Virus record (IMG/VR): IMGVR_UViG_3300044856_000241
Span: 32,001-96,000 of that record
Direction: 5' to 3' (one strand)
Origin: a virus
Lineage: Duplodnaviria; Caudoviricetes
DNA length: 64,000 nt
Of this stretch, positions 32,863 to 47,177 are shown piece after piece. Below the pieces are notes generated by a model. The model was not told where the DNA came from and made no database searches. It saw only the letters and a list, made by a program, of their open reading frames with translations. Each line of letters opens with the position of its first letter. The stretch's first letter is position 1. Position numbers and translations under genes: made by a program.

Positions 32863-33891
32863 TTAGATTTCTCCTCTCACGACTCGCTCATTCACATACA
32901 TTATAAATTCATTAATTCGCTTATAATCTGGTTTATCTGGAAGAGATGTGTTTTCTTTTGCATATTCAAATCTCTTCTCATATTCATTTAACAGATCATA
33001 AAATTCAGGGATTGGTTGTCTATTCTCATCTAAGTATTCTCCATTGCGGATACTCATCAGCAAGTCATGTTCATCTACTCTGTATGTAATAATTTCTTCA
33101 TTTTCCAGAATATCAATACACATCATATACAGTCTCAGCAAATGAGCCATATGTTTTCCTAATTTATCATGACTAATAGCTTTTTCATTACGTTTGCCAA
33201 TTTTGTTGTAGCTACTTACAATAGATTTCATTTCGTTCCACATACCAGCCCAGTCTCTTAATGGATAATGTTTTAAATTAATATCCATAAAAATTTCAGT
33301 CTCATATCCTTCCTGTACTGCTTTATCGATATATAAATTCACATCACTCTCATCATGTGGGAAATATCTGTTTTTGAAATCATATTTTGCATTTTGAATA
33401 CTTTTGAAAATATACTCTTCGTTCTGAGCCTGTCCGACTAAACGTGCTGCTTTATTCTGTAAACGTCTCAGCTGGCTTTGCGAATAACCTGCAAAAGAAT
33501 GAATGCAAATTTTTGATAAGAACATTTTCCTGTTATCTAATAATTCTTTTCCTATATCAGACAAATATAGATAATGCTCTGGTTTCGTTCCTAACAGCTC
33601 GATCGTGTTTGGATTATTAGAAGTCAATAACTTAACGATCTTATTGAAAGAATATACAGTTGTATCTGTTGGAACATCAACAACCTGTTCAAAATCGGTA
33701 CCTAAAAGAACTTCTGATTTACTGTTTAAAGCAACACTACGGATATCTAAGTCTGAATTAGGAGTTTCCATCCCGTATGCATGACTTCCGCCTAATGTCA
33801 ATAACATAATATTCTCTCCAAGATGTTCATCATTTCTCAAGAAATCATATTTCTCAGTTTTCAATTCTGATTTAATTTTATCAATTGTCAT
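32863..33891 (-). CDS. RlaP/YcgL-like nucleotidyltransferase
   Basis: GSHAYG...SDLD, NPN..ELL, KHMAHLLRL, IRNG. Confidence 0.8.
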   Translation of the reverse strand: MTIDKIKSELKTEKYDFLRNDEHLGENIMLLTLGGSHAYGMETPNSDLDIRSVALNSKSEVLLGTDFEQVVDVPTDTTVYSFNKIVKLLTSNNPNTIELLGTKPEHYLYLSDIGKELLDNRKMFLSKICIHSFAGYSQSQLRRLQNKAARLVGQAQNEEYIFKSIQNAKYDFKNRYFPHDESDVNLYIDKAVQEGYETEIFMDINLKHYPLRDWAGMWNEMKSIVSSYNKIGKRNEKAISHDKLGKHMAHLLRLYMMCIDILENEEIITYRVDEHDLLMSIRNGEYLDENRQPIPEFYDLLNEYEKRFEYAKENTSLPDKPDYKRINEFIMYVNERVVRGEI

Positions 33892-35497: not shown

Positions 35498-36812
35498 TTG
35501 AACTTCACACCGCTAAAGTGGTGTGATTCTTGGGAAATTATCTCTACTGAGATAATATTTACCAAGCTATCCCGATTGTTCCAACCGTTCTTATTTATGA
35601 TTATTAAGCTACTTCCAGTAGCCTTAATCCTTCGTTTAATATATTAATAGCAGCATTAATATCTCTATCATGATGTGTATTGCAACAAGGACAATCCCAT
35701 TCTCTAACATTAAGATTTTTTGTTTCCTTATTAACATAACCACATACATTACAAGTCTGTGAGCTTGCAAAAAACTTACCTACTTTTATAACTTTTCTAC
35801 CATACCAACCAACCTTATACTCTAATTGTCTTACAAATTCAGACCATGATACATCTGCAATAGACCTTGCAAGTTTATGATTTTTAATCATGTTTTTTAC
35901 TTGTAAATCTTCCAAACAAATCACATCATTATTTCTGATAATCTCTGTAGATAATTTCTGCAAGAAATCTTTTCTCTGATTTGCAATATGTTCTTGAAGT
36001 CTTGCAACTTTAATTCTTGCTTTGTTACGATTAGAACCACCTTTTGATTTTCGAGATAATTCTATTTGTAATTTAGCAAGCTTGTCCAATGACTTTTTGA
36101 GATATTTCGGATTCGGAATCATTTCTCCATCAGATGTTATACAAAACTCTTTAATACCTAAATCAATACCAACAGAATTTCCAGTTTTTTCCAATGGTTT
36201 CATTTCTACATCAGTACAGCATAGCGAAACATAATATTTTCCACTAGGCTCCTGTGATACGGTAGCATTTAATATTCTTCCTTGCGGAATTAATTTATTT
36301 TTAGTTTTTACCACTCCAAGTTTTGGTAATTTAATATGTCTTCCGCAATACTGAATATTATTATTTGTACATTTCGATTTATATGAATATCTATGTGTTT
36401 TCTTTGATTTAAATTTAGGATAACCGGTATGTTCTTTGAAGAATTTCTGATAAGCAGAATCTAAATCTCTAAGTGAAGATTGAAGAGCAGTGGAATCAAC
36501 TTCTTTTAACCATTCCAGTTCAGACTTAAGTTTTGTCATGTCTTTTGAACATTGTGTATATGAAAATGTTTCATTTTCTTTTTCATACATTTCAACTCTT
36601 TTTGCAAGATATGTATTATATACAAACCTACAACATCCAAAAGTCTTTGCTATTATTTCTCGTTGCTTTTTATTTGGATAAATTCTGTACTTATAAGCCT
36701 TTTCCACTACCTTCACCTCGCTTTCTTTCTAATTTATCACCTCATATGTATATTCTCCATTTGGTGTCGATTCATCTCACCACTGAAGTGGCGAGTGTTC
36801 TCACCTTTCTTC
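35498..36812 (-). mobile_element. Non-autonomous IS200/IS605-family (tnpB-only) element
   Basis: Left-end hairpin CTCGCCACTTCAGTGGTGAG, right-end hairpin TCACACCACTTTAGCGGTGTGA ending in TTCAA, inserted after TTTAT. Confidence 0.8.
35604..36716 (-). CDS. tnpB: RNA-guided endonuclease TnpB
   Basis: [12 protein letters not shown], RuvC GIDLG/EDL/DRDINAA, Zn finger CNVC..CPCC. Confidence 0.95.
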
Positions 36813-38014: not shown

Positions 38015-38614
38015 TCAGACGTACAGTTGATACTTCCTGCCAATCTGATCGATCACTCCACTATCCATCGGTTTAAAACCAATTACAGTAAGCGTCCTAC
38101 CATTTTCTTCCGGTTCTAACTCGGTATAGCAGTTATCATGGATCAACCAAAAGTCTTCATTCTCAACCATTCCCAAATCTTCTGCCATGGACTTAGCTTT
38201 CAGAAGCTGATTTTTATTCTTCGCTCTAAGAACACACTTTGTATATTCTCCACACATCCATTGCTCGTACAAATTTTTGTCAATAGTAAATTCTGTCTTG
38301 TAATGACTTACAGTTGGTTCATCCACCATTATTTGTTTGCCATATGGATTCTTCTGATTTGCCGGCTTATAATAAACCCATCTTTTACCATTCTGTCTTG
38401 TAATCTCTGCGAAATCATCTAAATCTGGATGTCTATACCATTGTGGTTTGCCGTCTGAACCATACGCCCTCAAAATCTTCTCATTAATGATCTTCGTCAC
38501 ATTATATCTAATCATTTGCATAAGAAATGCATTAGACGCATGACTTACTTGCACAGCCAATTTTTCTGGTGACATTTCCAGGTCTTTTCTTGCTATAATA
38601 ACTTGTTTGTACAT
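38015..38614 (-). CDS. Peptidyl-tRNA hydrolase, Pth2 family, with internal insertion
   Basis: KQVIIARKDLEMS..KLAVQVSHA, K.VL, IHD..YTELEP..TLTVIGF.P. Confidence 0.8.
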   Translation of the reverse strand: MYKQVIIARKDLEMSPEKLAVQVSHASNAFLMQMIRYNVTKIINEKILRAYGSDGKPQWYRHPDLDDFAEITRQNGKRWVYYKPANQKNPYGKQIMVDEPTVSHYKTEFTIDKNLYEQWMCGEYTKCVLRAKNKNQLLKAKSMAEDLGMVENEDFWLIHDNCYTELEPEENGRTLTVIGFKPMDSGVIDQIGRKYQLYV

Positions 38615-41475: not shown

Positions 41476-41651
41476 AAATGCGGGTGTGGATTTGCACCAC
41501 ACATGAATGTTACCATTCTGATTGTCGGTTTCTAAGGATGAAGAACCATCGTGCTCCCAGTTAACATCCGGGTGCTATTCAGTCGTACAATTAAGTACAT
41601 TTCTCGCTTACTCGAAAACCAATCTATGTTTACCTATTCCATCACCGCATT
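41476..41651 (-). ncRNA. tRNA-like RNA with a ~100-nt multi-hairpin insert replacing the anticodon loop
   Basis: AATGCGG/CCGCATT acceptor, TGATGGAATAGGTAAACAT D-arm, GATTG/CAATC stem, GAATG/CATTC variable arm, TGTGG-TGCAAAT-CCACA T-like arm. Confidence 0.65.
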
Positions 41652-41658
41652 GGATTAA

Positions 41659-42402
41659 TTATGCTTTATACTCAAAATACGGCATTGGCTGTACTTTGAA
41701 TAAATTCTTCTCATGCATATAATCAATCTTCTTTTTAATTTCAAGATCATCAATTTCACCTGTGCGAAGATAACGATCCAACACTGCATACGAGAATCCA
41801 AAATTCTCTTCGTCTGTTTTCCCGCATAAGCCATCTAAGGAAACTTTCTGTACAAGATGTTCTGGTAAATTAAGAACTTCTGCAATTGACCGAACTTCTG
41901 TTTTTGTAAACATTTGTAACGGAGAGAAGTCCCCTACGCTGTCCGCAAATCTGGTGTCATATCCCACGTATGTTTCTGAAAAATTACAAGTATTAGCAAC
42001 TCGTCCATTATGAGACTGTGAAACAGCATACAAGGTTGACATACGAATTCTTGCAGGAAGATTAATTTTTGTCTGCTCTGTAATATCAAAACCAGAATTA
42101 ATATGAATCCTATAAAGTAATCCACCTACTGTGTCTCCAATATTAACTACGCAGTAGTCAATACCAAGATGTTCACAAAGTTCATATGAATAATCAATGT
42201 CGCTCTGAGTACCCTGTGGCATCAATACACCATATACTCGATCAGCTCCAAGAGCCTCCACGCACAACGCCGCAACAGTAGATGAGTCGACTCCGCCACT
42301 AATCCCAACTATGGCGTTACATCCTTTACCATTGATTTCAAAAAATTCCTGTATCCACTCGACTAACTCATTTTTTACTTTTACTGCATCAAACTCAGCC
42401 AT
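41659..42402 (-). CDS. nadE: NH3-dependent NAD+ synthetase
   Basis: GISGGVDS, N..ARIRM..LY, NFSE..GY.T..D. Confidence 0.92.
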   Translation of the reverse strand: MAEFDAVKVKNELVEWIQEFFEINGKGCNAIVGISGGVDSSTVAALCVEALGADRVYGVLMPQGTQSDIDYSYELCEHLGIDYCVVNIGDTVGGLLYRIHINSGFDITEQTKINLPARIRMSTLYAVSQSHNGRVANTCNFSETYVGYDTRFADSVGDFSPLQMFTKTEVRSIAEVLNLPEHLVQKVSLDGLCGKTDEENFGFSYAVLDRYLRTGEIDDLEIKKKIDYMHEKNLFKVQPMPYFEYKA

Positions 42403-42898
42403 TATCTAACCTCCATAATTCCACATTCTGATATTTAAAAATCTTATCAATCATCTGATACACTTCATCCCAATTAGCCCCGCCTCTACAACATCCAATC
42501 TTCCAAGGCATTGCAACTGTTGCTCCACAATTATTGTTTCTCTCGCATATTCTTCCGTTCATATGCTTGAAACACTTCTCAAGAGCATCTAAATCCGTAT
42601 ATAACTTTCCGTCATAGCCATAATTGTCCTGTGCGAACATGTTACAAATCCACTGCTCTGTATACGGTACTGCCAGACTTCCACAATCATATCCAAGATA
42701 CATTTCTTTCACAGGAACAATCTGAACCTGTCCAAGCATCTCAGGAGAGGCTACTTTACAATATTCTCTGTATACATGAGGAAATTTTTCTCTCACTTGT
42801 AAAGCAACTCCTGATCCCATACGTTTCTGACAATTAACCTGGTGGCAAATGAACTTTGCATCTGTTGTAAACAGGTCGCCATCAATCACTTTAATCAT
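42395..42898 (-). CDS. Macro domain (ADP-ribose binding or hydrolysing) protein
   Basis: GDLF, HQVNC..MGSGVA, P.KIGC..GG..W. Confidence 0.88.
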   Translation of the reverse strand: MIKVIDGDLFTTDAKFICHQVNCQKRMGSGVALQVREKFPHVYREYCKVASPEMLGQVQIVPVKEMYLGYDCGSLAVPYTEQWICNMFAQDNYGYDGKLYTDLDALEKCFKHMNGRICERNNNCGATVAMPWKIGCCRGGANWDEVYQMIDKIFKYQNVELWRLDNG

Positions 42899-44366
42899 TT
42901 ACGCCACCATTCAATCTTTCTCTGATCTCGCCAAAAGTCTGCTCTTTTACTAATTCTCCATCTTTGAAGACAAGTTTCAGTTCATTCTCTTCCGGAATAG
43001 TATCTTCTGTGTATCCGTCAGTGCACACAAACTTGTCTCCATCTTTGGTAATACAGCACAGACCTTTATGTGATTTCTTAAGATTATTTCTGTCTGTTTT
43101 CGGGTTCTTCTGAATCGTATATTCTTTACCATCAATAATACAGTAAGTACTCTTCATAGCGAATCCAAAAGTATCTCTAGTCAGACAAACCATTCCGTCC
43201 TCCGGAGTACACATTGCCGAGAATGAGAATGCACCAACACCAAACAGGATTGTATCGGCTGCAAATCCTAACTTCTCAAGTTCAGTCCAGATTTCTTTGA
43301 TTTTGCTGTACTGGCAACCATCACCGTAGATAATTCCAATCTTCGGATTCAGCTCTCTATATCCTTTAGAATTAACACTACCGCCAAAAATCTCATACAA
43401 TTTCTGTACAGTTTTTACAGAAATCTCAATAATATCTCCACTGTCAGGTCTCACAAGGAATTTACCATTATGTTCCTTAATCTCTTTTCTCAGCTTTGGA
43501 AGTGTTTCTTCAATAAGCTTCCAATAATCGAATGTATCAGACACATAGCTGAAAGAAGTATTCTTATATGTATCAGTCAGAAGTCTTCTTAATAAATTCT
43601 CCTCAGTCTCACATACGGCTAAGTTACTACATACTGTCGCATGTTCCAGACTGACTGCACCGATTCCAATATGATTCTTGGCACAATCAGCGTTATACAT
43701 CAGGTCTACATACTGTGTTGCAGGAATGGTTGAAGTCTTATCGAATGATAACAACCATGAAGAACTTGCATGGATACCATTCTCAATACCAAGACCTCTG
43801 AATCCGAAATCTGCCATAGCCATAGCAGGATTGGCACCATTTGTTGTTTTCTCGTAGAACTCATTTGCCAGTGTTCTATACTTATGTCCTACAGTTGCCC
43901 AGTTACACGTACCAAAAGTGAACGACTGAATTCCGCACTCTAACCATTGCACTACCCATGCGAAGTCTGGATGAGTATTTGTCATCTCAATACATGGAAT
44001 TCCCATATTTACTACAGATCCTTCCGGTAATGCTTTAATCTCTACTGGTAAATACTGTAAATCCCATAATTTCTCAATACGTCCAAGGTCATAACTCTGG
44101 GAACCAATCTGATTATCCAGATACTTTTTATACTCAGCAATTACTTCATCTTTTGGACGTTTAAAGAATGTATCATTTACCAGCTCAATCAGATACTCTT
44201 TGATAAATCCCTGAAGTCCAAAAAATACAACTTCATTCAGATTTTTAAACATAGACTTTCTCGGAGTAATATAAGAAGTCAGTTTTGTGAGTCCGTCCGG
44301 TAACGCATCCGGATTTGTATTTTTGTAAGTGTCAGCCATCAGCATAAAAGAAATATTTCTCATCAA
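42891..44366 (-). CDS. NAMPT/NAPRT-family phosphoribosyltransferase (Namat-like)
   Basis: DTYK, DFGFRG, EH, SDTFD, RPDSGD, YGDG, RDTFGFAMK, K.PKTD..KKS.KG. Confidence 0.9.
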   Translation of the reverse strand: MMRNISFMLMADTYKNTNPDALPDGLTKLTSYITPRKSMFKNLNEVVFFGLQGFIKEYLIELVNDTFFKRPKDEVIAEYKKYLDNQIGSQSYDLGRIEKLWDLQYLPVEIKALPEGSVVNMGIPCIEMTNTHPDFAWVVQWLECGIQSFTFGTCNWATVGHKYRTLANEFYEKTTNGANPAMAMADFGFRGLGIENGIHASSSWLLSFDKTSTIPATQYVDLMYNADCAKNHIGIGAVSLEHATVCSNLAVCETEENLLRRLLTDTYKNTSFSYVSDTFDYWKLIEETLPKLRKEIKEHNGKFLVRPDSGDIIEISVKTVQKLYEIFGGSVNSKGYRELNPKIGIIYGDGCQYSKIKEIWTELEKLGFAADTILFGVGAFSFSAMCTPEDGMVCLTRDTFGFAMKSTYCIIDGKEYTIQKNPKTDRNNLKKSHKGLCCITKDGDKFVCTDGYTEDTIPEENELKLVFKDGELVKEQTFGEIRERLNGGVND

Positions 44367-45292
44367 TACACCTCCATCACTTTGATCTTTTCATGTTTAC
44401 CTGTGAACAAACTATCTGTTGTAAACAGTCTCTCTACTGTATTATTCTCCAGGTCTTTGATCAAAGTTCCTTTTTCCTTATCAAGTACAGAATTCTCACA
44501 ATGAGTTGCATAAGCGTAAACTTTCTCTGGTTTGTAATTCATTAATTCTTGCACACCATAGTGTATTGAACCACCGTAACTAATAAGATCGTCAAGTACC
44601 AATACAATCTTGTTTTCCAGATTAATGCCATTTGTTCTAATATCAATTCCAAGAATCTTACCAGTCTCCCAATCACGTTTCTTCTCTCCATAGCAGTATC
44701 TAAACTGAGGGAACATGTCAGCATAACGTTTTGAAGCACTATAATCTGGGAAATACAGTACTAATTTAGAATCATCAAACACTGAATTTTCATAAGTGTC
44801 AGAAACTACATCATTTTTAATATCTGAGAATTCCGTAACTACTTCTTTTTCTATATTCTCGTTTCTAATTTCGTCAATTGCTTTCTGGATAAAATTCTTA
44901 GGAGATTTATTGATACAATTATTAAGAAGTGCTACAGATACATTGCTATGAGCATCCAGAATGAATACTCGTGAAAAATTAAGTGAATTGATTACATCAC
45001 AAAAATACTTAAGTGTGAATACTTCACAATCTCTTTTAGTTCTGTCCATCCGTCCATTTGGAATATAATCCATTGTCAATAAGTATGTAACATCTGCTAA
45101 ATTTGCATCCAGATGTTTTTTAATCATAGTCAGATACATCAACTCTGCATCATTTTCATATTTCCATCTGATATGTATATACGATGTTGATCCATCTGTG
45201 AAATCTGGAATATCATCAACATCCAGATTAATTCGTGGTGTTCCATCAGGATAATGTTCAATCTTTACTTCTAGTTCATTTACACTAATCAT
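44363..45292 (-). CDS. PRPP synthetase-like (Adps-like) protein
   Basis: YIP..RMDR, DAHS, PD..A.KRY, KKRDWETGKI, DDLISYGGS. Confidence 0.85.
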   Translation of the reverse strand: MISVNELEVKIEHYPDGTPRINLDVDDIPDFTDGSTSYIHIRWKYENDAELMYLTMIKKHLDANLADVTYLLTMDYIPNGRMDRTKRDCEVFTLKYFCDVINSLNFSRVFILDAHSNVSVALLNNCINKSPKNFIQKAIDEIRNENIEKEVVTEFSDIKNDVVSDTYENSVFDDSKLVLYFPDYSASKRYADMFPQFRYCYGEKKRDWETGKILGIDIRTNGINLENKIVLVLDDLISYGGSIHYGVQELMNYKPEKVYAYATHCENSVLDKEKGTLIKDLENNTVERLFTTDSLFTGKHEKIKVMEVY

Positions 45293-45981
45293 AAGCTATA
45301 TTCTTCCTCTCTAATTCTTTTATACTCTGTATATATTCTATTCTCACAATAATACAGATTGTAATCACACTGCTCGATATACCACCATAATTTCTGATGT
45401 CCAAGACGAAGGTAATCTTCCAAATAATGCTGTTCTTCGTAATTGTTGCCAACCATCTGACGGAAACTTAATTCATCAATATCAGAACTATTTTTCACAA
45501 ACAATGCAATATCCATAATGTCATTAATGCTATAATTTTCAGTTACAACAAATACAACTCTTACAATCTCTCTACCAGTTCTTTTAATATGGGAAAGTTG
45601 CTCATAACTATTCGCATGATATACAACACGATAACAATCATAAAATGGGAAAGATGTTTCATCTGTCATATAGCTTGTGTGCATTTCTACCGGAATTTGA
45701 CGTTCTTTATTGTTGCGATAAACATTACGTTTATGTACTATACTGAAAAATTTTCGATACCAATCAATATGTTTTTCATATTCATGAAGTGGATCCCCAC
45801 CTCCAGAAAGAGAGATAATATTGCAGTTATTTTCTTTTAACACATCTTCCAAACAATCCAGCCCACCAATTGTACTTTTTGGAATCTGGAGATTGTTGTT
45901 TGTCACAATACAATAAGGACATTTATAATGACAGCCAAAATTTGTAATTACACTCAAATATTTATCCATCTTATTCTCCAA
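45289..45981 (-). CDS. Radical SAM protein
   Basis: CHYKCPYC (CxxxCxxC), SGGGDP. Confidence 0.85.
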   Translation of the reverse strand: MENKMDKYLSVITNFGCHYKCPYCIVTNNNLQIPKSTIGGLDCLEDVLKENNCNIISLSGGGDPLHEYEKHIDWYRKFFSIVHKRNVYRNNKERQIPVEMHTSYMTDETSFPFYDCYRVVYHANSYEQLSHIKRTGREIVRVVFVVTENYSINDIMDIALFVKNSSDIDELSFRQMVGNNYEEQHYLEDYLRLGHQKLWWYIEQCDYNLYYCENRIYTEYKRIREEEYSL

Positions 45982-46471
45982 TCACTGTAATCTGACAACT
46001 CTTCATAACTTCCATCGCTGCTCTGTGAGCCTGTGGTGTAGTTCCGGCACAACAACTTGCATCTACAATAATCTCCGCGAATGGATAAATTGTTTTAAGA
46101 ATCAGTGCATTTGTTACTACACAGATATTTGATACAAGTCCTACAATGTGAATTTCTTCAAACTGATTACAAAGCTCTCTCCAATGTCTCCATCCAAAGG
46201 TATTTTTATCAATATATCTACAATTTGGTTGTTCTAAGCCATCAACAATTTTCCATCCATCAGTATTTTCAATACAATGCGGAATCGGCAACTTCTTACC
46301 TTCAGGCGTGTTTAAATAATCTTCGTTGTGTGTATCTCTTGTAAAAATCAAATCTCCATCCCATTCTTCAATCTTCTTTTTAACTTTCGGGACGATTGCT
46401 CTAGCTTCAGGTGTCCCTAAGCAACCCGTCACAAAATCATTTTGCATGTCGATCACAATCAATAACTTCAT
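45971..46471 (-). CDS. Nicotinamidase/isochorismatase-family hydrolase (PncA-like)
   Basis: IDMQNDF, RDTH, PHC...GW, K.TFG, GLVSNICV. Confidence 0.85.
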   Translation of the reverse strand: MKLLIVIDMQNDFVTGCLGTPEARAIVPKVKKKIEEWDGDLIFTRDTHNEDYLNTPEGKKLPIPHCIENTDGWKIVDGLEQPNCRYIDKNTFGWRHWRELCNQFEEIHIVGLVSNICVVTNALILKTIYPFAEIIVDASCCAGTTPQAHRAAMEVMKSCQITVIGE

Positions 46472-47177
46472 TTTCCATCTCTCCTTTTTCATACTCATCC
46501 AACTTTGAATTCATCATATCCTGTTGAACCATGCTTCTATATAACCTATTCTCTTTACACCAATCACAACTTCCATGATTCCTGCATGTACTGTCAATAG
46601 CTTTACATCCGGTATACGGTTTTCTATACTCTTTCTTGTGTTTTATAGCTTTATCCAATGACATAACATCACCTCACTATTCCGCATCAATTACTAATTC
46701 GTGATTCACTCCTTCGTATATTAATGCGTCTCCAATTTTAATGTCACTACCATCACTCGGATGTTCTACAATAATTATCGTATTCGGATTCACTTTCTTA
46801 TACCGATCCAGGCACTTGATTACATCACTTAGAGTAGAACCCCAGACACGTTTATCTTCTTTATAATATCGAATTGTATCTTCGTACAACTTCTTCATAT
46901 TTTCATATTTTTTCTTCGTTACTAATCCAAACATTTACATATTCTCCGTACTAAATCTTACAGAACGCTCATATGCATATTCTCTAATTGTGAGACTTTT
47001 CACCTATCAGCCAAAGACTGATGGGATTGCGAGCCTGATTTTTTCCTCAAGATTCTTAATAGAAATAGAACAATCACTCACTGCCTCGACTAATTCTTTC
47101 CTCTTCATATTTATATATTCTCCTTCTATATTTTTTAGAAATGAGCTGACTAGCTATGACACCAGCCAACTCTGAAA

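Follow-up and report, generated by a model that had tools for sequence, protein, structure and literature searches.

Few bacterial strategies against phages are as common as the depletion of NAD+ (nicotinamide adenine dinucleotide). Of the ways in which phages are known to counter it, the most frequent is NARP1, an NAD+ reconstitution pathway made up of the enzymes Adps and Namat (Osterman et al., bioRxiv 10.1101/2024.02.11.579819; structures in PMC12774641 and PMC13586617). The literature also describes NARP1-AP, with the macro-domain enzyme Adpp that converts ADP-ribose (ADPR)-1''-phosphate to ADPR (bioRxiv 10.64898/2026.01.28.702374), NARP2, in which a phage NAMPT is paired with an NMNAT as in Vibrio phage KVP40, and NARP3. 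Here we consider a six-gene operon in a window of 64,000 nucleotides that represents bases 32001-96000 of the 203,624-bp gut phage record IMGVR_UViG_3300044856_000241 in IMG/VR (100% complete according to CheckV, with no N in the sequence). As in NARP1, an Adps-family gene lies directly upstream of a gene for a Namat-clade transferase in a phage anti-defense neighborhood, and as in NARP1-AP, a macro gene of phrog_335 is found within the operon. Unlike NARP1, a nicotinamidase (PncA) and an NAD synthetase (NadE) join the pair, which is true of none of the 127 classical loci sampled. We propose that the operon is a nicotinate-type variant of NARP1-AP, a reading that we favor with modest confidence; that it represents a conserved nicotinate-type module is well supported, while its key reaction is predicted.

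In the proposed route, a host NADase would cleave NAD+ to ADPR and nicotinamide, and the macro enzyme would release ADPR from ADPR-1''-phosphate or from other conjugates; the Adps homologue would convert the free ADPR with ATP to ADPR pyrophosphate (ADPR-PP). PncA would hydrolyze nicotinamide to nicotinate and NH3, and the transferase, a Namat with serine at a key pocket position, would join nicotinate to ADPR-PP to give nicotinic acid adenine dinucleotide (NaAD) directly, so that a mononucleotide adenylyltransferase would not be needed, after which NadE would convert NaAD to NAD+ with ATP and NH3. As a side route, the same transferase might use phosphoribosyl pyrophosphate (PRPP) to form nicotinic acid mononucleotide (NaMN), to be taken up by the NMNAT-like enzyme of related phages or by the host NadD. 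We infer all of these substrate assignments, above all that of ADPR-PP and nicotinate to the transferase, as well as the role in counter-defense. What the sequences themselves show is which genes are present and to which families they belong, that catalytic residues are kept, that the pyridine pocket is remodelled, that the module is conserved, and that the phage has no adenylyltransferase.

The operon shares with NARP2 the rebuilding of NAD+ by a NAMPT-family enzyme, and some relatives of the cassette carry an NMNAT-like gene, but the transferase lies outside the clade of PRPP-type NAMPTs, the genome contains no NMNAT, and a PRPS-like gene, PncA and NadE are all missing from NARP2. With the bacterial Preiss-Handler route (PncA, PncB, NadD, and NadE) it shares the first and last enzymes and deamidated intermediates. 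However, a PncB-family nicotinate phosphoribosyltransferase and NadD are both absent (the match to the NAPRTase profile TIGR01513 reaches 25 bits against a cut-off of 297, and the sole phosphoribosyltransferase belongs to the NAMPT/Namat family), and relatives of Namat and Adps are present instead that would bypass NaMN. If correct, the scheme would give phages a third chemical way of rebuilding NAD+, via deamido-NAD without a mononucleotide or an adenylyltransferase, in which the NH3 released by PncA would be re-used in the NadE step. The nicotinate-type branch would be a new enzyme reaction in NAD biochemistry and the transferase a natural switch of pyridine specificity in the NAMPT fold, at a residue that has been mutated in the human enzyme. 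In our literature search no paper was found that combines NARP1 with a nicotinamidase or describes the conversion of ADPR-PP and nicotinate to NaAD, the NARP1 papers covered by it mention neither NadE nor nicotinic acid, and the supplements of the NARP1-AP preprint contain no mention of an isochorismatase, nicotinamidase or NAD synthetase.

The operon and its pyridine base

The six open reading frames (ORFs) lie on the minus strand at window positions 41659-46498 (Table 1), and because each overlaps the next by 4-11 nt they are regarded as one operon, as an earlier note made from the sequence alone had claimed. The order of transcription is PncA, radical SAM (S-adenosylmethionine), PRPS-like, NAMPT-like, macro and NadE, and the gene names are supported by matches to Pfam, PHROG and NCBIfam profiles, the radical SAM label being the exception.

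Nicotinamidases are separated from other isochorismatase-like hydrolases by an Asp-Lys-Cys triad and an Asp/His/His metal site, and all six of these residues are present in the phage PncA. Among solved structures, the P. horikoshii nicotinamidase 1im5 comes closest. With residue roles as established for PncA, the catalytic residues Asp17, Lys98, and Cys126 align to D10, K94, and C133 of 1im5 and the metal ligands Asp54, His56, and His74 to D52, H54, and H71. NadE scores 166 bits against TIGR00552 (cut-off 64) and has the P-loop SGGVDS (in the motif GISGGVDSS) within a single PP-loop ATPase domain, with no glutaminase domain; its nearest solved relatives are 2e18, 3p52, 3fiu, and 1xng.

The transferase has as its best solved relatives the structures 9w5x and 9w5w of the SPbetaL1 Namat (E 8e-96, compared with 1e-38 for human NAMPT), the numbering of which (D13, Y15, R40, F189, D215) agrees with that published for this enzyme (PMC12774641). 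When the two are aligned with HMMER, LLSFDKTSTIPA of the window falls on LLSFTGTDTIPA of the SPbetaL1 Namat such that Ser212 is placed on Asp215, the equivalent of human Asp219, which bears out the alignment by eye of the earlier note. Asp215 hydrogen-bonds nicotinamide and its replacement in the D215A variant of the SPbetaL1 enzyme lowers nicotinamide-dependent NAD synthesis 8-fold (PMC12774641), and two further papers list D219S of human NAMPT as a substrate-switch mutant (PMC4919578, citing Khan 2006; PMC7096376). The residue is Ser or Ala in 82/82 members of the clade to which the phage enzyme belongs and Asp or Glu in 127/127 classical loci.

The exchange is not confined to this residue. 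When 18 representatives of the Ser/Ala clade were compared with 63 Namats of the Asp/Glu type (SPbetaL1 numbering), six positions in or beside the pocket motifs differed: the His187 of the Asp/Glu type is replaced by Ala, Ser or Gly (Ala in the window), Ser190 by Gly, His207 by Trp, Gly213 by Lys in 14 of 18 representatives and by Arg in the gut phage Phass-1, the Asp or Glu at 215 by Ser or Ala, and Ala242 by Ser in all 18. The window enzyme thereby differs from that of NARP1 in having Ala187, Gly190, Lys213, Ser215, and Ser242. Both Asp215 and Ala242 are named as residues of the nicotinamide pocket of Namat (PMC12774641). The new Lys of the clade sits two residues before the Ser, and the loss of an acidic residue together with the gain of a basic one would fit a ligand that carries a carboxylate. 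The human counterparts of His187, Gly213, and Ala242 are His191, Gly217, and Ala244. In human NAMPT, mutations at His191, Gly217, and Ala244 prevent the binding of inhibitors to the nicotinamide site (PMC4919578). Ralstonia phage RSP15 has a PRPP-type NAMPT in which a seemingly independent pair of Gly-to-Lys and Asp-to-Ser exchanges proved to be an artefact of hmmalign, as the raw motif KGSDT is of the Asp type, and neither NadE nor PncA was found in that phage.

The distribution of the cassette points in the same direction as the pocket. A scan of IMG/VR with the transferase yielded 80 loci (46-95% identity), and as the gene set recurs in these, in two GenBank phage records and in six bacterial assemblies, it is far from a chance arrangement. 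Among the 82 loci from IMG/VR and GenBank phages, 76 carry NadE and 77 carry PncA, and in those without one of them the contig or locus ends early. The control consisted of 127 Asp/Glu-type loci collected by searching with three Namats, from a Bacillus phage, a Felixounavirus, and ICP1, and within 8 kb neither NadE nor PncA was found in any of them (0/127), Adps being present in 123. Over all GenBank phage records, a NAMPT/Namat homologue occurs in 2040 and NadE in 52. The Ser/Ala type forms a single clade, and the association therefore reflects a single origin followed by long retention as a mobile module. Taken together, these data bear out part of the earlier note, namely the nicotinate logic of the deamidated pathway, and the PRPS-like, NAMPT-like, and macro genes fall in the Adps family, the Namat clade, and the Adpp family; the note's choice of ribosyl donor, in comparison, is not legible from the sequence. 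That the transferase is a nicotinate ADP-ribose transferase, forming NaAD and pyrophosphate from ADPR-PP and nicotinate, is a proposition that we regard as evenly poised.

The module is found in phages of ~135-400 kb, including Phass-1, which uses genetic code 15. The 402-kb megaphage G003 has two complete PncA-Adps-Namat-macro-NadE cassettes (loci L072 and L226), one of the Ser type and one of the Ala type, each adjoined by an NMNAT-like gene. The bacterial assemblies with a cassette (L227-L232) comprise those of Thomasclavelia cocleata DSM 1551 and Ruminococcus sp. AM36-2AA and metagenome-assembled genomes of Agathobacter, Acutalibacteraceae, and other Clostridia; IMG/VR also lists two related records as proviruses. 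The hosts are likely gut Bacillota. Since many large phages of this group have the branch, it might bear on how they deal with hosts in which nicotinate is the free pyridine pool or with defenses that make nicotinamide unavailable. A megablast search of the operon against GenBank phages gave no match, and its relatives are visible at the protein level only. For annotation, this means that calling NARP1 from Adps and Namat alone would merge the cassette with the nicotinamide pathway.

Table 1. Positions of the operon genes and neighboring genes (window coordinates) and of features in related loci (locus coordinates).
Feature	Position	Strand	Basis and remarks
PncA-type nicotinamidase, 175 aa	45971..46498	-	PF00857 E 1.4e-21; probable start Met10 at 46471
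Putative divergent radical SAM protein, 230 aa	45289..45981	-	phrog_17662; no Pfam match; CX3CX2C motif
Adps-family PRPS-like enzyme, 309 aa	44363..45292	-	phrog_619, 186 bits
Ser-type Namat homologue (NAMPT family), 491 aa	42891..44366	-	phrog_448, 485 bits
Macro-domain protein	42395..42898	-	phrog_335 'phosphatase' E 4.8e-40
NadE, single-domain NH3-dependent NAD synthetase, 247 aa	41659..42402	-	PF02540 E 9e-49
PTH2-type peptidyl-tRNA hydrolase domain protein	38015-38614	-	
Tad2-like (Thoeris anti-defense 2) domain protein, 133 aa	37223-37624	-	PF11195 E 2e-10
TnpB/IS605 OrfB protein	35604-36716	-	Cas12f-like TNB domain
RlaP protein	32863-33891	-	RNA-repair-pathway polymerase-beta family
NMNAT-like gene	L034:14479-15054		
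NMNAT-like gene	L066:7368-7955		
NMNAT-like gene	L226:3230-3793		
NMNAT-like gene	L229:624-1184		
NMNAT-like gene	L235:1372-1962		
Cassette of megaphage G003	L226:4625-11567		
Interrupted cassette	L034:5348-13125		
Radical SAM-SLOG pair	L005:12600-16046		
TnpB gene	L005:16194-17300		

The ribosyl donor and competing routes

If the base is nicotinate, the remaining matter is whether it is joined to ADPR-PP or to PRPP. The PRPS-like protein belongs to phrog_619 together with the Adps of ICP1, of Bas63-like phages, and of Bacillus phages. The ADPR pyrophosphokinase activity and structure of the ICP1 enzyme have been published (PMC13586617), and its residues R87, H121, D161, K185, D212, and D213 are invariant in the window protein. 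The latter scores 56 bits against the PRPS profile TIGR01251 (cut-off 113), compared with 84-120 bits for known Adps, and has the PP loop DDLISYGGS where the PRPS of B. subtilis has DDIIDTAGT. It is therefore assigned to the Adps family and is proposed to be an ADP-ribose pyrophosphokinase. An attempt to separate ADPR from ribose 5-phosphate (R5P) as the acceptor by Adps residues failed, as the conserved contacts of the ICP1 enzyme are common to PRPS, and one further contact, Phe92, varies among Adps themselves (PMC13586617).

The transferase is likewise of Namat descent. In the FastTree phylogeny, in which support values are SH-like (Shimodaira-Hasegawa-like) only, Namats and the Ser/Ala clade are split with 100% support from six PRPP-type phage NAMPTs and one giant-virus NAMPT, and the Ser/Ala clade, the Bas63-type Namats, and the ICP1/Bacillus-type Namats together form a polytomy. 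As in NARP1, the enzyme keeps the catalytic His, Arg306, Asp308, and the TRD motif. The selectivity clamp was compared by its motif GSX-phi-X-phi-X-phi-TRD, in which positions 3 and 7 are aromatic, and the loop residue Arg40. The adenine-stacking Phe392 at position 3 is retained in the window enzyme, whose clamp helix reads GAFSFSA followed by a 10-aa insertion and LTRD, and the clade member Phass-1 has the whole clamp intact (GAYTYQYVTRD).

The macro protein fits the same picture. It shares 29% identity with that of Vibrio phage K408 (BLASTP E 4e-28), and both belong to phrog_335. In K408 the gene order is Adps-macro-Namat, as in NARP1-AP, and here it is Adps-Namat-macro. The gene belongs to the NARP1-associated Adpp family of ADPR-1''-phosphate phosphatases, and in contrast to NARP1 operons, of which 15% have it, it is nearly universal in the Ser/Ala clade, with a HAD-like phosphatase gene taking its place inside the cassette of Phass-1. 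The protein also resembles DarG-type ADP-ribose glycohydrolases, a match that is below the cut-off, and its substrate is a prediction. As to the earlier suggestion that the macro domain supplies ADPR, the family fits and the phosphatase activity is predicted.

The search for an adenylyltransferase was extended from the window to the complete genome. The earlier note had seen no NMN (nicotinamide mononucleotide) or NaMN adenylyltransferase in the window and had held that a nadD elsewhere could complete an ordinary Preiss-Handler route. The window is indeed devoid of such a gene, and the complete 203,624-bp genome contains neither a NadD nor an NMNAT, giving no match to PF01467 and, in six-frame translation, none to a profile built from the NMNAT-like genes of relatives; the objection thus fails for this phage. 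A Nudix gene was not found in the complete genome either. In the relatives that have it, the NMNAT-like gene is of the NadM/archaeal type with the motifs GRFQxFHxGH and ISATxxR, scores below curated cut-offs, and is an optional sixth member of the Ser/Ala cassette. It is present in none of the 127 Asp/Glu-type loci and was not found in 14 of 21 Ser-type relatives that are near-complete. The PF01467 matches in two related megaphages are to CoaD-like proteins and not to NMNAT.

We favor ADPR as the source of the ribosyl moiety because the PRPS-like gene falls in the Adps family, of which the SPbetaL1 member yields no PRPP (bioRxiv 10.1101/2024.02.11.579819), because the transferase descends from Namats and not from the NAMPT clade, because Phe392 is kept and the clamp of Phass-1 is intact, because a gene that would release ADPR (macro or phosphatase) lies inside nearly every cassette, and because two thirds of the near-complete genomes are without an adenylyltransferase. 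A further reason for preferring ADPR is that in relatives the genes of the cassette are interspersed with those for Tpt1/KptA, NADAR, and SLOG proteins, each of them linked to ADP-ribose. In one such subgroup the cassette is interrupted by genes for an adenylosuccinate-synthetase-like protein, a Tpt1/KptA RNA 2'-phosphotransferase, a YspA-type SLOG protein, and NADAR, and would seem to form a larger ADP-ribose-centered island (L034).

Several observations weigh against the direct formation of NaAD. The adenine clamp of the window enzyme is altered, unlike that of NARP1, in that Arg40 is replaced by Met, the aromatic residue at position 7 by the 10-aa insertion, and Ser391 by Ala. The sequence of the PRPS-like enzyme is compatible with either ADPR or R5P as the acceptor. 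The association of the pocket with PncA and NadE represents one event and not repeated covariation, because the Ser/Ala type is a single clade. The human D219S enzyme reportedly takes both bases, so that the Ser by itself does not exclude nicotinamide, and short NadE enzymes include the NMN synthetase of Francisella (3fiu). Finally, of the 80 IMG/VR loci, 18 have the NMNAT-like gene next to the cassette, and it is found in 7 of 21 related Ser-type genomes that are at least 90% complete. In the phages that carry it, at least, a mononucleotide intermediate would therefore seem to be of importance. It is mainly the occurrence of this gene in relatives that limits our confidence in the direct ADPR-PP route to a slight leaning.

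The same gene keeps alive a phage-boosted Preiss-Handler route, in which PncA would provide nicotinate, the PRPS-like enzyme or the host would provide PRPP, the transferase would form NaMN, the NadD of the host or, in phages that have it, the NMNAT-like enzyme would convert this to NaAD and NadE would complete the synthesis, the macro domain being an unrelated ADP-ribose hydrolase. We consider this route unlikely. It would account for the NMNAT-like genes beside the cassette, including those beside both cassettes of G003, and for the altered clamp of the Ser/Ala clade, and to our knowledge every host has a NadD, with NaMN as the preferred substrate. Moreover, the SPbetaL1 Namat does use PRPP if ADPR-PP is absent (PMC12774641). 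However, neither this genome nor 14 of its 21 near-complete relatives have the NMNAT-like gene, the validated member of the family of the PRPS-like enzyme makes no PRPP (bioRxiv 10.1101/2024.02.11.579819), the transferase falls with Namats outside the PRPP-type clade, no Nudix enzyme is present to convert ADPR to R5P, and the macro or phosphatase gene locked within the operon would be left unexplained.

Compared with the nicotinate-type reading, an ordinary NARP1-AP that uses nicotinamide is very unlikely. In it, PncA and NadE would be add-ons that salvage nicotinate via host enzymes or tune the level of nicotinamide. Adps, Namat, and the macro protein are indeed the published set (bioRxiv 10.64898/2026.01.28.702374), and, as human D219S reportedly does, a Ser at position 215 may still take nicotinamide. 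Yet the acidic residue is invariant in the classical loci and costly to remove (PMC12774641), the six clade-wide exchanges in the pocket motifs, including the new Lys, argue for a different ligand, a PncA from the same operon would destroy the substrate of the transferase, and PncA and NadE are never found with an Asp-type Namat. The least probable option is a Francisella-like order, in which NaMN from the transferase would be turned into NMN by NadE, working as an NMN synthetase, before an NMN adenylyltransferase completes the route. It can appeal to the short phage NadE, with F. tularensis 3fiu as its third-best solved relative, and to the NadM/archaeal type of the accessory enzyme of relatives. 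Against it stand the missing NMNAT in this genome, the lower score of the match to 3fiu (92 bits) than to 2e18 (120 bits), and the close relationship to the short H. pylori NadE 1xng as well, the structure of which was reportedly solved with NaAD bound.

The putative radical SAM gene and the surroundings of the operon

The second gene of the operon is more difficult to place. The earlier note had called it a radical SAM enzyme and had counted it as part of the pathway, with its role left aside. Its product has a CX3CX2C motif (C17/C21/C24) and the sequence SLSGGGDP, which are invariant in eight homologues. The putative label draws on these motifs, on a sub-threshold match to PF04055 (14.7 bits), and on weak fold matches. 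The AlphaFold2 model has a pLDDT of 66, and its best Foldseek matches are to radical SAM enzymes (E ~2e-3, TM 0.4). A more specific name could not be derived from the fold, since only generic matches (EpeE, PFL-AE, BlsE, MoaA) were obtained with E values of 2e-3 or worse, and an Atlas search with the protein returned mainly viral clusters without function. It was also considered as an activase of an anaerobic ribonucleotide reductase, a candidate that was rejected, as NrdD and NrdG are both encoded by the phage elsewhere, at 29.4-31.5 kb of the genome.

The gene is present in the window operon but is not part of the core: apart from the window, only loci L002 and L026 have it within the operon, making three lineages in all. 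In about 10 relatives it is found 4-5 kb from the cassette, and the flanks of the remaining ones are without it. We therefore treat it as an optional accessory of the operon. In at least one of the relatives with the gene outside the operon, L005, it overlaps a downstream YpsA-family SLOG gene in a head-to-tail fusion, with a second radical SAM gene 1.4 kb upstream.

Downstream of the operon, 4 kb from nadE, is a gene for a Tad2-like anti-Thoeris protein (Table 1), which suggests an anti-defense neighborhood and fits a counter-defense setting for the operon. A scan for promoters and terminators found sites to be no more numerous than in shuffled sequence. A tRNA-like element just 3' of nadE (window 41476-41651 and 41484-41502) was not called as a tRNA by ARAGORN, and the 3' end of this element coincides with a minus-strand hairpin that resembles a terminator. 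Two further genes downstream of the operon code for an RlaP protein and a protein with a PTH2-type peptidyl-tRNA hydrolase domain. The phage genome also contains a gene for a TnpB protein, and a similar gene adjoins the radical SAM-SLOG pair in L005.

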